A stretch of DNA of 64,000 bases. It comes from Massalongia carnosa. Its lineage: Eukaryota. The position numbers were made by a program, and so were the translations under genes. The notes below the pieces were generated by a model. The model was not told the origin of the DNA. It saw only the letters and a list, made by a program, of their open reading frames with translations, and did not search any database. The stretch covers positions 992,001-1,056,000 of the forward strand of contig OZ287075.1 in assembly GCA_965645245.1 (NCBI GenBank), read 5' to 3'. This document shows, in pieces, positions 4,014-62,096 of the stretch. Within the stretch, counting starts at the first letter, position 1; each line of letters opens with the position of its first letter.

Positions 4014-4836
4014 ATGACGCACGTCCTGGATTTCTTAGACTTCCAAAGGATGCTCGAATGCAGATATATCAACCATTATGTCTTGATCAATGCATCATTG
4101 AGACAATCTGTGGCAAGAAAAAGTCATAAACTACCAAAAAGCTGCACGTTCGTTATCAGAAATTACTTTCCGACTAGATTGGTTTGCTTCACGTATCTAA
4201 ACTCATCAGCAACGAAGCCCTGGAGGTGCTATATTCAACCAATATCTTTGGGTTGGATTCCCCTCTCCATGAATCTGTTATGGGCTAGCTTATGAATATT
4301 GGCCCTGCTAATCGGCTTCGGCTTCGGCTTCGGCTTCGGTCTTGATTATCGATTATCTGCTAGGCACCTTTTTCCCTAGTATACATAAACTATTTATTCG
4401 GATAATTGGCGACGGCTTCGCTGAAGATGTGATCGAATTGGCTTCTGTCCTTGTGGAGAGGCACGATCTGTAACGAAAGTCAGTTATTAATCAAATCACC
4501 CAAGGTCTCGGCCTCCTTAAGGAAACCCCATATTTGCACTATCTACATGCAAAATTTCCCCAAGAAGCCGTAACCTATCATTCAGTCATGAAGGGGCCTG
4601 AGGATCGCATCAGGATAGACTCTTACGACTCGTTGAACAGTTGCGGGGAGCTTCGTACAGTGCTAGGAAAATTCCAACATATCAAAACTTTATGTGTCGA
4701 CTACGTGGGAGATCTAAAGTTTCTTGAAGATGTAGCCAGCAAGATTGGTGCGAAAAAAATTCAGATGTCGCTCCAGAAGAAGTGCACTAAAGAGTATTTA
4801 GAGACCGCTCAGAAAATGGGATGGTTTCTTTACTAA
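4014..4836 (+). pseudogene. Degraded fungal F-box-like protein
   Basis: FLD/LPKDARMQIY needs a 1-nt frameshift near 4040. Downstream is LLHVSKLISNEALEVLYSTNIF, typical of this family, with in-frame stops and a (GGCTTC)4 tract at ~4315-4338. ORF 4534..4836 may be the C-terminus. Confidence 0.55.
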
Positions 4837-5612: not shown

Positions 5613-5681
5613 CGTGGACACCCCTTTGGTTACCTGGACACCCCCCAGTGATACACGGACACCCCCTTCCTAGAATAGGTA
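5613..5681. repeat. Left arm of a palindromic GGACACCCC-repeat (MITE-like) element
   Basis: Three GGACACCCC units at 20-21 bp spacing, preceded by TA (5611-5612). 5628-5681 is the exact reverse complement of 11467-11520. Confidence 0.8.
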
Positions 5682-5995
5682 AGAATCAAGGGTTCAGCCC
5701 CCTCACTTACCCACTTCGGGGTAAGCTCCCGGGCGCATATCGGGGAAATTTTTTCCTTCACCTTTTGATAGTGGTCGGGAATTTCTGAAACGAAGTCGAT
5801 TGGCACTGTCTTTGCAAATCAGACTCTGATTCTAGAAACTAAGCCTCATTTGGTCTAAGTAATGATGCTAACCTCCTCATCTCCGCTTGCTGTCGCTGTC
5901 CCCCCCCCCCCCCTGTCGCCGTCCCCGCCTCCGAGTCATTTGCAGTCAGCCTATCTGCCAATCCCCTCGTTATAACCCCTCCTCTAGCCCTACCT

Positions 5996-10043: not shown

Positions 10044-10129
10044 TACGGTTGAAAAAAAAATTCCCGAGGTGCACCCTCGGGAGCTTACCCCGAAGTGGGT
10101 AAGTGAGGGGGCTGAACCCTTGATTCTTA

Positions 10130-11466
10130 CAGTACTAGGTCAAAAGTTTCCGACAGCTCCCCATCAACTTTTTACCCCCCCCACTGCTTTGAATTATCAA
10201 CCACCAAGTTTTTATTTTATGCCTTGAAACTTGGTACGATGATTACATACATTCTAGCAAGGAATTTGGGATGAGAAATATATTTTTAATATTTCGTATA
10301 CCATCCTTTCGATTGGATGCAAGCTTCAATCCTCCTTTCCATGCTCTCTATTAAACTTCTCAACATTTCCTCATCTATCAAGGCCTATGTTTCTTCCAAC
10401 GCTTTCCAAAGTACCTCGCGGATCTTATCATCACTACCAGTCACCGAATCGATGTTCGGATTGACTTGATAAAAGAGCTGTTTGAGCACATACCAAACGT
10501 GCTCGATGGGGTTCAAATCAGGAGAATAAGGAGGCCAATCGATGATTGTTATACCGTTTTCATCGAACCATTTCTTCACCTTTTTGGCAGTATGAATCGG
10601 TGCATTATCCTGTATGAAAATGAAGCCCGGTTCCCAAATTTCAAGCAGATTATCGTTCAATAATTCCAAATATGAATTCGCGGAGTACCCCATCTTCTTT
10701 GCTTCGAAATCGCGGGCCAATTTGTAAAGATCTGACCTTCCTCTCATACAAAAAGCCCCCCATACCATAACCTTGACCTCCTTGCCTTTGGCGTACGGTT
10801 GTATCATAGGTTTTTTCCATTTTTCCTCCGGAAATCTGAACATCCATTGACGCTATTTTCCTGACCCCTTTTCCACCGAACACTCGTCTGACCATATAAT
10901 TTTTGACCATTGCTCAGAAGTCCACTCACGCCGAAGCAAGCACCATTCTAATCTCTTCTTTGCCACCTCGGGCGTCAATAAAGGCCGCTTTTTAGCCAGC
11001 CAGTTTGTTATACCGTAGTCTTTGAGCGTCCGATAGAGAGTGGATCGACTGCATTGCACCCCGGCCTCCGTACGCAGCTGCGCATAGGTGATGCGTGGAT
11101 TGATTCGTGCAAATTTGATGATACATCTTCTATCGCGATCCGAAAATATTCCAGGCCGACCTGATCGCGATTTGGACTTTTCGTTGTTGCGTTCTGAGTG
11201 CTTTTGAAGAGTGTAAATGACGGTGGTTCGAGGCACATTTAATGTCTTTGCAATTTCGGCCGGTGCATGCCCCAACGCCTGGGCTCCAATAATCATACCT
11301 CTTTGACATTGATTCAATTTGGTATTACGAGGCTTATTACCAGAAATTGAAGCCACGGAGTGCGTGGCATGGTGAAATGATGAGGTCAAAGTTGATGGGT
11401 TGGAGGGGTTGAAACGCGAAATCACGAAAATCGCGGGTAGAGTCGGAAACTTTTGACACGGGACTG
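10130..11466 (-). mobile_element. Tc1 (impala-like) DD34E transposon
   Basis: 26-bp TIRs CAGTACTAGGTCAAAAGTTTCCGACA / CAGTCCCGTGTCAAAAGTTTCCGACT. TA at 10128-10129 and 11467-11468. Confidence 0.92.
10286..11370 (-). pseudogene. Tc1 transposase, inactivated
   Basis: MPRTP/ASISGN start needs a 1-nt frameshift. Triad IWSDEC / FIQDNAPIH / SPDLNPIE. In-frame TAG at 10853-10855 and 10385-10387. Native end KGWYTKY* at 10286. Confidence 0.88.
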
Positions 11467-11536
11467 TACCTATTCTAGGAAGGGGGTGTCCGTGTATCAC
11501 TGGGGGGTGTCCAGGTAACCTCAGGGGGTGTCCAGG
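11467..11536. repeat. Right arm of the palindromic GGACACCCC element
   Basis: Reverse complement of 5613-5681 (54 bp perfect, then diverging). Ends in CCAGG at the insertion point of the next element. Confidence 0.8.
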
Positions 11537-12887
11537 CACGCGGGGCCAAAAAAAGTTCCCACACCAAAAATTTCACCCACCCTAAAAATCCTTCTTTTAC
11601 CCAACTCCCTCATTATGAATAATCAATCATCAATTAATCGTTCTAGTACACCTGATTTTGATGATCATAACTGTACTCAGGAGTATTCTACGCCCATAAA
11701 AGCTAAAGTTCAAGCTGTTGTTGAATTTAATGATGCTCATAAAATTATCTATTTTAAAGAAGACGTTTTTCGTCATTTCGGCGTGGAACGAACGAGCGGT
11801 TATGCCATGCTTCGGGGCGAATCATCTCGTCGATTTCATCACAACTCGGTCTGGCCAGAGACTCGAGGTAGAAAAAAAGCGATTGATTGGGAGACTCTCA
11901 AGAGACTGGAGGAAATAATTGAAAATGGAGGTATTCAAGCTCGAGCTATGTCCTGGCATCAACTGGCCAAAGAAGTAGGCCTCGTGGGCAGTAATCGAGT
12001 GCATTGGCACACCATCAGAAATACTATGCAGGACTTGGAATATCACAAATGCATCGCTTGTACGAGGACCTGGATTGCTCCTCATCTTCGTGCTTTAAGA
12101 CGTACTTTTGCACGAGATAAAATCACCACTTGGACATTGGAGGACTGGAAGTTGGTCCGTTTCAGCGATGAAGTTCATTTCGGGCTTGGTCCTCAACGCC
12201 GATTGCGCATTATACGTCGACCGGGTCAAAGATATTGTTTTGACTGCATGCAGGAGGGGAAAGAGCCCGAAGAAAGAGTACAAAAGCGTTTTCATTGCTG
12301 GGCGTGGGTGGGATGGAATTACAAATCAGATCTGATTTTTTACGAGGTTCCTGGAAACACCAATGGAAAGATGAGCCAAAGAGTCTATATAGACTCCATT
12401 TTGGAGCCTATTGTAAAGCCGTGTCTCGAGATGAGTGAACGATTTGTTTTGGAGGAAGATGGTGATTCGGGGCATGGTTCAGCCAACAATAACAACATCG
12501 TACGGAAATGGAAGGAAGAAAACGGGTTAAAGTACTACTTCAACGCCCCAAAATCTCCCGATTTGTCCATCATTGAAAACTGCTGGCAGCCCGTCAAGCA
12601 GTGGTTATCAAAATCGGATCATTGGGACGATGTGACCACTTTAGATGCAATTCGTACAGGGTGGAGGGATCACGTTCCCCAGGAATGGATCAATTCGTTA
12701 GTAGAACAAATGCCACAACGCATGCATGATGTGCTAGATGGAGAGGGTAAAATGACAGGACATTGAGCGATTTTTGTTGCATATAGTCGTGTATAATAGT
12801 GATTATTCATGATGAGGGAGTTGGGTAAAGAAGGATTTTTAGGGTGGGTGAAATTTTTGGTGTGGGAACTTTTTTTGGCCCCGCGTG
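11537..12887 (+). mobile_element. Tc1/IS630-like DD38E transposon with CACGCG termini and ~89-bp TIRs
   Basis: TIRs 11537-11625 / 12800-12887 (CACGCGGGGCCAAAAAAAGTTCCCACACCAAAAATTTCACC...). Flanked by CCAGG / CCTGG, not TA. Confidence 0.9.
11615..12766 (+). CDS. DDE transposase (Tc1/IS630-like, DD38E), 383 aa, uninterrupted
   Basis: RFSDEVHFG / VLEEDGDSGHG / SPDLSIIENCW; the ATG lies inside the inner end of the left TIR. Confidence 0.9.
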   Translation: MNNQSSINRSSTPDFDDHNCTQEYSTPIKAKVQAVVEFNDAHKIIYFKEDVFRHFGVERTSGYAMLRGESSRRFHHNSVWPETRGRKKAIDWETLKRLEEIIENGGIQARAMSWHQLAKEVGLVGSNRVHWHTIRNTMQDLEYHKCIACTRTWIAPHLRALRRTFARDKITTWTLEDWKLVRFSDEVHFGLGPQRRLRIIRRPGQRYCFDCMQEGKEPEERVQKRFHCWAWVGWNYKSDLIFYEVPGNTNGKMSQRVYIDSILEPIVKPCLEMSERFVLEEDGDSGHGSANNNNIVRKWKEENGLKYYFNAPKSPDLSIIENCWQPVKQWLSKSDHWDDVTTLDAIRTGWRDHVPQEWINSLVEQMPQRMHDVLDGEGKMTGH

Positions 12888-13011
12888 CCTGGACACCCCC
12901 TGAGGTTACCTGGACACCCCCCAGTGATACACGGACACCCCCTTCCTAGAATAGGTACAGTCCCGTGTCAAAAGTTTCCGACTCTACCCGCGATTTTCGT
13001 GATTTCGCGTT
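12888..13011. repeat. 124-bp perfect inverted duplication of 11413-11536
   Basis: Base-by-base reverse complement. Contains the GGACACCCC arm, the TA and a copy of the Tc1 TIR (12958-12983). Confidence 0.92.
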
Positions 13012-59875: not shown

Positions 59876-60469
59876 TTTGATCGAGAACGAATGGTGTGTT
59901 TGTCGAAGTCGGGTTTGCGATTGTGGATGAAAGAGAGGCGAGGATGGAAGAAGAATCCCGGTGTTGAAAAATGAGTGGAACAAGTGGGCTTTCAAAGTCG
60001 AAATGACGCTTCGCACGCACGTTGCATATGGGAGACCTTCGGAAGCCTTTCAGGACAGTCCTCCTTTCTCTTCGATCGAGGAACGCAAGGTTCTCGAAGG
60101 AAGATCAAGAGGAATCCTGAAGAGACTCTGCGCACGAGAATCTGCTGGTGAGATTGACCCGTGGTGATGTGTTCGTCCGGCTCTTGAAGAGAAGCGTAAA
60201 GAAGAAAAGCTAAGAGGGATTCGCGGGGCATGTTAAAGTAGGCATCGCGCGGATCAGGTGATCATTTGACTCAAGGTGCTGATTGGTGGTACCTTGCAAG
60301 GCTTGCGTAAGAGCGGCTGCATGCAACAATGACTCGACTTCGAGTGATTCGCCAGAAGTGTAGATGGTGGCCTTGGGATTTATCGTAAACAATTCAGGCT
60401 GGCCGAGCTACCGTATACGCTAAGCCACTCTAAGGTTTTTGAGTTCTCCGTTGGACTTTCAGGGACAGG

Positions 60470-61793
60470 CACGCGCTCGCAGAAAAAAAGCGACACCCAA
60501 AAATTTCACCCCATCAAAAAATCCCCCCTTTTCACCAACAACCAGCATCATGGAACGACCCAACACACCTGAACCTAACTCTTCTGAATCTAGAATGCAC
60601 TATCCTACTCCTACAAAAGCTAAAATTCAAGGAGCCGTTGAATTCTGTGATCGCATGGGCATTCTCTAGTTCAAAGAGGACGTTTTTCGTACGTTTAATG
60701 TGAGTCATCATGCCGGCTGGAGAGCTTTAAATCAGGAGAGCTCGCGAAGACATCACAATAAGCCTGATCTTCCTGAAACACGAGGGCGAAAGGCCACCGC
60801 CACCCCGCAAAAAATTTGCGAAATGGAGCGCATCATAGAGGAGGAGGGATTTGAGGCGCGTGCTCTCACCTGGGCACAGTTGGGCTATGAGGTGGGACTT
60901 GAATGCTCGGGACGAATCATACAAATAGCAATGGGAACGATAGACTATCACAAATGCGTCGCATGCAGAAAGGGCTGGGTCAATGAGAAAACAGCTCGTC
61001 GTCGCTTTGATAGGGCCAAATTTATGTTGAAAAGATATCCTGAAAAGTCTGACTGGCATAACGTACGATTCAGTGATGAGGTGCATTTCGGATGGGGTCC
61101 TCAAGATAAACTGTCCATCATTCGCCAGCCGGGCGAAAGATATTGTCAGGACTGTATAGAGCAAGCAGCAGAACCAGATTCTAGAGATGTGAAACGGCAT
61201 CATTGCTGGGCAGCTGTTGCTCACGATTTCAAGTCAGATATTCATTATTACAATGTGCCGGGCAATACCAATGGAAAGATGAGTCAACGGGTATATATTG
61301 ATCAGATTTTGGAGCCGGTGGTCAAGTCGTGGCTTGATCAGGGGCATGACTTCGTGCTTGAAGAAGATGGGGATTCGGGTCATGGACCGAGCAAATCAAA
61401 CATCGTACGCACTTGGAAGGAGACAAATTATCTAAACCATTATTTAAATTGTGCTTCATCACCTGATTTATCTCATGTGGAAAACAGCTGGTCAATTCCG
61501 AAGCAACATCTTCGTAAATATCCTCATTGGGACGATGCGACGACCAAGGAGCTAATTAATGAAGGATGGGATCGTGTTTCTCAGACATTTATTAATGAAA
61601 AAGTTGATGAAATGCCTGATCGGTTGCAAGCAGTCATAGATGGCGAGGGCCAGATGACTGGCTACTAGTTAGATGAATATAATCAGCTTTTCATGATGAT
61701 TAAATGCTGGTTGTTGGTGCTGGTTGTTGATGAAAAGGGGGGATTTGGTGGGGTAAAATTTTTGGGTGTCGCTTTTTTTTCTGCGAGCGCGTG
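60470..61793 (+). mobile_element. Tc1/IS630-like DD37E transposon with CACGCG termini and a 5-bp TSD (ACAGG)
   Basis: ~78-bp TIRs CACGCGCTCGCAGAAAAAAAGCGACACCCAAAAATTT...; direct repeat ACAGG at 60465-60469 and 61794-61798. Confidence 0.92.
60550..61668 (+). pseudogene. DD37E transposase with one premature stop
   Basis: In-frame TAG at 60667-60669 where the paralogue at 11615 has Tyr (IIYFKEDVFR). RFSDEVHFG / VLEEDGDSGHG / SPDLSHVENSW. Confidence 0.88.
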
Positions 61794-62096
61794 ACAGGGC
61801 TAGTAGTTTGGATATGGTTAGCATTATGAAGTTGGGGTTGCGATACTTTATAGATAAAACTAATCCCTGAGGGCCCCAAATGATGCGATTAAAGGGAATG
61901 TAAAAATACAAACAGTATAAACTCTAGGTTCGATTTGCCAACTCGCTGTGTTTCTCGGAGAAAGGCTCCCTACCAAAGGGTTATGAATTCGACCTTTCGC
62001 TCAGACGGTCAAATCGAGCAGTGCAAAGAAAAAGCACCACAAGTGGTCCTCAACCAGACTGCGGGACGAGGCTCATTCCAACTATCCAAAAAGAGG

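Follow-up and report, generated by a model that had tools for sequence, protein, structure and literature searches.

Does a transposon with a Tc1-like enzyme necessarily duplicate TA when it integrates? The question is raised by a 1324-bp element, here called copy 1, in the 64,000-nucleotide stretch of Massalongia carnosa DNA that we analysed (the window; contig OZ287075.1 of assembly GCA_965645245.1, positions 992,001 to 1,056,000, forward strand). Targeting and duplication of TA is treated as a hallmark of the whole IS630/Tc1/mariner (ITm) group, and the structures of Mos1 explain integration in such terms; copy 1 carries a transposase gene of this type and lies between two copies of the 5-mer ACAGG. 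Our analysis answers the question at the level of a family: copy 1 very probably lost its activity only recently and belongs to a large family of ascomycete transposons, Tc1-like and with a single gene, that integrates with a 5-bp duplication.

Direct reading of window positions 60300-62000 places the element at 60470-61793, with CACGCG starting at 60470, CGCGTG running up to 61793, ACAGG abutting both ends (60465-60469 on the left and, as an exact repeat, 61794-61798 on the right, both unstranded features) and no TA at the junction on either side, which is how a first-pass annotation of this DNA had described it. The inverted ends that it reported are present and are longer than it gave: the left terminal inverted repeat (60470-60550, plus strand, terminus CACGCGCTCGCAGAAAAAAA) aligns with the right one (61712-61793, minus strand, ending CGCGTG) over approximately 82 nt at 90% identity with small indels, and the two are perfectly complementary over the first 20 nt. 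With up to three mismatches, the terminal 20-mer occurs at only two sites in the window and in 0 of 100 shuffles. The transposase gene (60550-61668, plus strand, 372 codons, DD37E) is a single frame from 60550 to the stop at 61666-61668, and an in-frame TAG at 60667-60669 is its sole interruption. The motifs RFSDE, EEDGDSGH and SPDLSHVE (the last annotated as SPDL..E) and the D-to-E spacing of 37 (manual count), all reported before, are found within an open reading frame (ORF) of 281 amino acids at 60823-61668; the gene itself is longer.

Position 60669 is G in copy 1 but C in contigs of other genomic copies, so the nonsense change is private to copy 1, which cannot supply its own transposase. 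Word depth over the element, a rough measure, is approximately 6-60 times that of the flanks in sequencing runs X1, X2 and X4, a rough sign that the element is present in many copies, some with a sense codon at the position of the stop. At a single element, an exact 5-mer repeat would arise by chance in about 1% of cases given the target bias of the family (8 of 812 cross-paired flanks). Because the window alone could not settle the length of the duplication, we took the question to relatives elsewhere.

The search began from copy 2, a member of a second subfamily in the same window (11537-12887, plus strand, 1351 bp; found by local BLAST), which has near-perfect inverted ends of approximately 88 bp (CACGCGGGGCC...) and an intact gene for a 383-residue transposase (11615-12766, plus strand; D185, D282 and E321, DD38E; Cys146, Cys149, Cys208 and Cys211), with 54% protein identity to copy 1. 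Its protein has 243 relatives at E ≤ 1e-3 in a word-indexed search and 3097 in a full scan of 50%-identity representatives, 865 of them at E 1e-10 and 193 at 1e-30. The named relatives are all Pezizomycotina (Colletotrichum, Bimuria, Botrytis, Pyrenophora, Ophiobolus and Eremomyces), which supports the fungal host that the first-pass annotation had proposed. An alignment of 31 sequences was then used to scan metagenome contigs; 591 stretches carried the peptide pattern, 110 of these encode a relative, and the best 80 loci were kept.

Ends were first set by aligning the region upstream of each gene with the reverse complement of the region downstream (15 of the 80 loci had too little flank for this). 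A 20-nt position weight matrix of the terminus, built from 26 ends of 13 elements, gave 98 matches of at least 14 bits in the loci and the window; weak matches at window positions 4104 and 19981 were within the chance number and were dropped. Termini were fixed, independently of the flanks, by the motif C(A/T)(C/A)G(C/T)GG...GAC with its A run. At L006, L011, L016, L040, L048 and L063 the raw alignment was 1-8 nt longer and the end was placed at the motif; for L006 and L037, which score poorly against the matrix, ends came from the left-right alignment, with L006 trimmed by one base at each end. Duplicate loci L020, L022, L049 and L074 were left out together with L010 and with L015 and L031, each of which has one end at a contig edge, and the final set comprised 29 distinct elements with both ends, of which the metagenomes contributed 27 and the window 2. 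Members of the family are 1.27-1.75 kb long, with inverted ends of 30-90 bp, a single gene and termini of the CAC, CAA, CTC and TAA types. Two loci have features of their own: L011 (240-318) is a deleted relic of 79 bp in which two additional bases, CA, at the left end put the 5-mer CCATG out of register, and at L005 a 44-nt inverted repeat (95%) brackets the insertion asymmetrically, approximately 92-135 bp to the left and 14-57 bp to the right, so that the element may lie inside another inverted-repeat element.

An exact 5-bp direct repeat abuts the termini in 21 of the 29 two-ended elements. When flanks of different elements were cross-paired as a control, 8 of 812 pairs gave such a repeat, which corresponds to 0.29 expected per 29 (binomial p 3e-36). 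Repeats of 1 bp were observed 12 times against 10.0 expected, those of 2 bp 5 times against 3.6 and those of 3 bp once against 0.5, and lengths of 4 and of 6-10 bp were not observed at all among these elements. TA stands on both sides of 0 of the 29 and at the junction of 0 of 31 single-ended termini. The 21 duplications represent 18 different 5-mers, and this variation between insertions shows that the 5-mers were copied from diverse targets and do not belong to the element. Identity to copy 2 among the repeat-positive loci spans 33% (L079) to 59% (L048), every terminus type is represented among them, and two internally deleted derivatives retain family ends and have 5-bp duplications of their own: L073 (2413-2983, 571 bp, CCTTG) and L080 (3874-4273, 400 bp, CCAAG). 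The collection of homologues and the scoring of their flanks, which the first-pass annotation had suggested, thus find 5-bp repeats abutting the termini without TA, and the duplication that it read at copy 1 is a property of the family and not an accident of that copy.

The duplicated sites share a preference. After symmetrisation of the 21 sites, C occupies position 1 in 25 of 42 and position 2 in 24 of 42, A or T occupies position 3 in 30 of 42, and G stands at positions 4 and 5; outside the 5-mer, C is absent from −2 and G from +2. The resulting palindromic consensus is roughly W-N-C-C-W-G-G-N-W, and the preference is real but loose. Fourteen of the 21 duplications start with CC or end with GG, compared with 57 of 348 background 5-mers (p 4e-7), and the same is true of 21 of 31 single-end flanks against the same background (p 3e-10). 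The CCWGG-like preference suggested earlier therefore exists, although it is weak.

The enzyme encoded by the family resembles Tc1 transposases in sequence and predicted fold. Intact copy 2 scores 53.7 bits against DDE_3 (PF13358), above the Pfam cut-off of 28.6, and the partial 281-residue ORF of copy 1 scores 26.5 bits; copy 2 scores 18.3 bits against the helix-turn-helix (HTH) family HTH_Tnp_Tc3_2, below its cut-off of 31.5, and at E ≤ 1e-3 the two families are matched by 30 and 17 of the 31 aligned members, respectively. The catalytic residues are conserved (D185 in 30 of 31, D282 and E321 in 31 of 31); D-to-E spacings of 37 and of 38 occur in 14 members each, and those of 39, 41 and 42 in one each. 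Compared with the PDB, the family profile matches the catalytic domain of Sleeping Beauty (5cr4, E 2.1e-18) and aligns the SDE, DxD..H and SPDL.PIEN motifs; its match to Mos1 by sequence is marginal (E 0.1). An AlphaFold2 model of the copy 2 protein (predicted local distance difference test score 76.3) shows helical bundles at residues 28-66 and 92-140, and a Foldseek search with it retrieves 5cr4 (E 1.2e-10; template-modelling (TM) score 0.72-0.74), the full-length Mos1 complexes 4u7b, 5hoo and 3hot (5hoo at E 1e-8) and the transposase domain of SETMAR (3f2k, TM score 0.81), all three proteins ranking ahead of retroviral integrases. These matches agree with the Tc1/IS630-like assignment made in the first-pass annotation. 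By homology, the family enzyme is a Tc1-like transposase; through it the element is related to the group, yet it departs from the TA rule and so is not canonical.

A duplication of 5 bp implies, by the established logic of DDE transposition, a stagger of 5 nt. In the mechanism that we propose, the transposase would bind the 30-90-bp inverted ends through its putative paired-like N-terminus; the element would be cut out at its C...G termini by cut-and-paste chemistry, as homology suggests; each 3′ end would be joined to one strand of a CCWGG-like site, with 5 bp between the two target phosphates instead of the 2 bp of insertion at TA; and filling of both 5-nt gaps would generate the duplication.

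A candidate for what sets the stagger is a family-wide CxxC...CxxC arrangement that brackets the first catalytic Asp. In copy 2 it comprises residues 146-149, just before the catalytic domain, and residues 208-211, after the strand that follows the first Asp (window 12050-12061 and 12236-12247, respectively). All 31 members have C146, C149 and C211, and 28 of them have C208; the arrangement is absent from the translation of E3, a TA-type element in the same window described below, and from the aligned segment of Sleeping Beauty. We speculate that the four cysteines could form a zinc module (Cys4) near the linker and the β2-β3 loop, which would re-space the two protomers and their active sites; the model has low confidence exactly at the cysteine motifs (residues 147-152 and 193-217). 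The full proposal, namely that a Tc1-like DD37/38E clade of filamentous ascomycetes no longer obeys the TA rule and inserts at CCWGG-like sites with a stagger of 5 nt, that it is the first TA-free, 5-bp lineage of the IS630/Tc1/mariner group, and that the cause is a clade-specific, probably zinc-binding Cys4 module that re-spaces the active sites, has in our judgement an even chance of being right.

Several observations weigh against a family that duplicates 5 bp. All sampled loci come from metagenome assemblies. Eight of the 29 elements have no repeat: L001, L004, the L011 relic, L016, L023, L041, L063 and copy 2. Six of these match at 0-1 of five positions and L063 at three; copy 2, the only other copy in the window, is flanked by CCAGG (left) and CCTGG (right), a pair that is no direct repeat and matches at four of five positions on direct reading, the flank test having used ends one base off. 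At L004 a repeat, ACTAC, is present and is offset by one base on the right; the right flank of L001 is itself repetitive, and that of copy 2 has demonstrably been replaced. It looks as if the flanks of the repeat-less elements were exchanged or rearranged rather than decayed. The enzyme also scores only 31.4 bits against the NCBIfam IS630 model NF033545, for which the cut-off is 100. Lastly, no empty site for copy 1 was found in sequencing runs X1, X2, X4 and X5, which were examined among the seven runs (one a lichen metagenome) in which the window stretch is listed: contigs of X1, X2 and X4 run from the flank into both element ends and so represent the occupied site, no joint skips 60470-61793, and X5 has holes adjoining the element. 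A BLAST comparison of 200 bp of flank on each side of the 29 elements with all collected loci gave no empty-like site; L010 is the occupied counterpart of L006.

The surroundings of copy 2 account for its own lack of a repeat. Its left flank (11413-11536, ending CCAGG) recurs on the other side as an exact inverted copy (12888-13011, starting CCTGG; both unstranded), so that inverted symmetry extends outward from the element for 124 bp without a mismatch or, in an alternative alignment, as 188-nt arms at 99%. This outer stretch consists of the last 55 bases of E3 with its TA and a 68-bp piece of a repeat of approximately 140 bp, and because of this composition it is flank and not a longer end of copy 2. 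Because the right flank is an inverted copy of the left, the right-hand duplication is unreadable. The likeliest cause would be fold-back repair primed by the inverted ends of the element itself, possibly following a one-sided break. Positions 5615-5681 were considered as an empty site for the left flank of copy 2 and were rejected: the homology ends 2 bp before the terminus, at the end of the 140-bp repeat, and the right flank has been replaced.

E3 (10130-11466, minus strand) provides a TA-type control in the same window. It is a classical Tc1-like element with CAGT ends, a DD34E enzyme (manual count) and a gene in two ORFs that score 65 bits against DDE_3 and 59 bits against HTH_Tnp_Tc3_2; the 281-residue ORF of copy 1 is 22% identical to it. 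TA flanks E3 at 10128-10129 and 11467-11468, and a paralogous empty site is available in the uninterrupted repeat at 5615-5754, which has a single TA at 5680-5681, the flank matches overlapping by exactly TA. E3 is thus a conventional Tc1-like element whose TA duplication is confirmed by the empty site. The 140-bp repeat, which contains three GGGGGTGTCC motifs 21 bp apart, has two copies, 5615-5754 and 10055-10129 plus 11467-11534, the second split by E3 and abutted by copy 2; it may be a miniature inverted-repeat transposable element or part of a larger repeat. A run of approximately 15 C lies at 5899-5914 in a C-rich stretch adjoining the repeat region.

Of the alternatives, the one that survives best leaves the biology as described and holds that a family with a 5-bp duplication has already been catalogued in Repbase, Dfam or a paper, which we consider possible and, on balance, somewhat doubtful. 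The family is a large one, with 193 clusters (50% identity) reaching E ≤ 1e-30, relatives occur in the well-studied genera Botrytis, Pyrenophora and Colletotrichum, and curated libraries often hold consensus entries that were never published. Full-text literature searches, with Repbase, Dfam and supplements outside their scope, gave no ITm element with a 5-bp duplication, and to our knowledge every characterised IS630/Tc1/mariner element integrates otherwise than 5 bp apart. In the passages bearing on target sites, a 2021 paper has the whole ITm infraclass duplicating TA, the TATA of Sailor excepted (PMC8533490), and a 2026 survey of fungal PF13358 elements gives TA "invariably" (PMC13469147). 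The elements reported from Sclerotinia and Paracoccidioides are, in the relevant sections of the two surveys, pogo-type, 1.8-2.3 kb long and associated with TA (PMC4188875, PMC2836289). One apparent precedent for a Tc1 element with a 5-bp duplication was set aside, since the part of that paper at issue concerns long terminal repeat retrotransposons (PMC10085805).

It is also conceivable, if highly improbable, that the DDE_3 protein is not the mobiliser and that a Transib/RAG-like or an integrase-like Ginger enzyme acts in trans. CAC termini together with 5-bp duplications are the signature of Transib, and the deleted copies show that mobilisation in trans occurs. Yet the single DDE_3 gene is found with the family ends and a size of 1.3 kb over the whole identity range of the repeat-positive loci, and the ends co-vary with the gene as CACGCGG, CAAGCGG, CTCGCGG and CAAGTGG types, neither of which favours a foreign enzyme. 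Pfam searches of copy 2 and the 31 members gave only DDE_3 and HTH families and no RAG1-type domain, and a passage in PMC5751038 names Transib as the one DNA-transposon superfamily missing from fungi. The remaining alternative, that the ends were mis-set and that the true element extends beyond CAC to flanking TA with ACAGG a chance repeat, merits practically no credence: it can point to the inverted repeat that runs 124 bp past CACGCG at copy 2, but that extension is flank made of E3 and the 140-bp repeat, complementarity in the 27 metagenome elements stops at the C...G termini or by chance 1-8 nt past them, and 5-bp repeats at 21 of 29 elements stand beside TA on both sides of none and a 2-bp count at expectation.

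Our preferred reading, a Tc1-like family with a 5-bp duplication, has consequences for both mechanism and annotation. A close structural relative that uses a 5-bp stagger at GC-rich sites would be a natural experiment on the distance between strand-transfer sites and on the reading of the target. Annotation pipelines that require TA of Tc1/mariner elements would probably overlook or misfile the family in fungal genomes, or label it Transib-like from its CAC ends and 5-bp repeat. An active member could in principle yield a tool of the Sleeping Beauty type with a different insertion spectrum, and in copy 2 the gene is intact and the ends are near-perfect; if the proposal is true, the TA-free clade as a whole would offer a natural scaffold that resembles Sleeping Beauty but has another target spectrum.

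Compared with the Tc1 family as represented by Sleeping Beauty and impala, the fungal family shares a single gene, a size of approximately 1.3 kb, inverted ends, a putative paired-like HTH together with DDE_3, and a matching fold. Its predominant D-to-E spacing of 37-38 is as in impala, a fungal element given as DD37E in a passage of PMC7325037, which also counts the common TA site among the reasons for placing IS630, Tc1 and mariner together. The fungal family differs at that very point, with variable 5-bp duplications at CCWGG-like sites where Tc1 has TA. It differs further in its termini, C(A/T)(C/A)G(C/T)GG as against the CAGT type of E3, and in the CxxC...CxxC motif around the first catalytic Asp, which E3 and the aligned segment of Sleeping Beauty lack.

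Other departures from a plain TA duplication are known. Tc4 and Tc5 duplicate TNA, the ciliate element TBE1 duplicates ANT, and Zator duplicates 3 bp. Sailor (DD82E) is a precedent for an altered duplication within ITm, and the portion of PMC8533490 that characterises it gives a D-to-E spacing of 78-111 and a TATA duplication, whereas the fungal family has spacings of 37-42 and TA-free 5-mers. Sailor, Tc4/Tc5, TBE1 and Zator are all centred on TA or T-N-A or belong to deep, separate superfamilies; the fungal family, in contrast, combines a Tc1-like enzyme with a GC-rich 5-bp site. Transib and RAG1-like elements share with it the 5-bp duplication and, in part of the family only, CAC termini; its DDE_3 transposase is unrelated to theirs and many members end in CAA or CTC, and the resemblance is convergent. 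A mechanistic comparison is offered by the Mos1 strand-transfer complex (5hoo), which the model matches over its full length, and the transpososome of the fungal family, as judged from this model, is probably similar to that of Mos1 and built around paired ends. Mos1 integrates specifically at TA with severe distortion of the target, as stated in the pertinent part of PMC5481204, whereas the 5-bp stagger of the fungal family would imply that the two active sites are spaced differently along the target.

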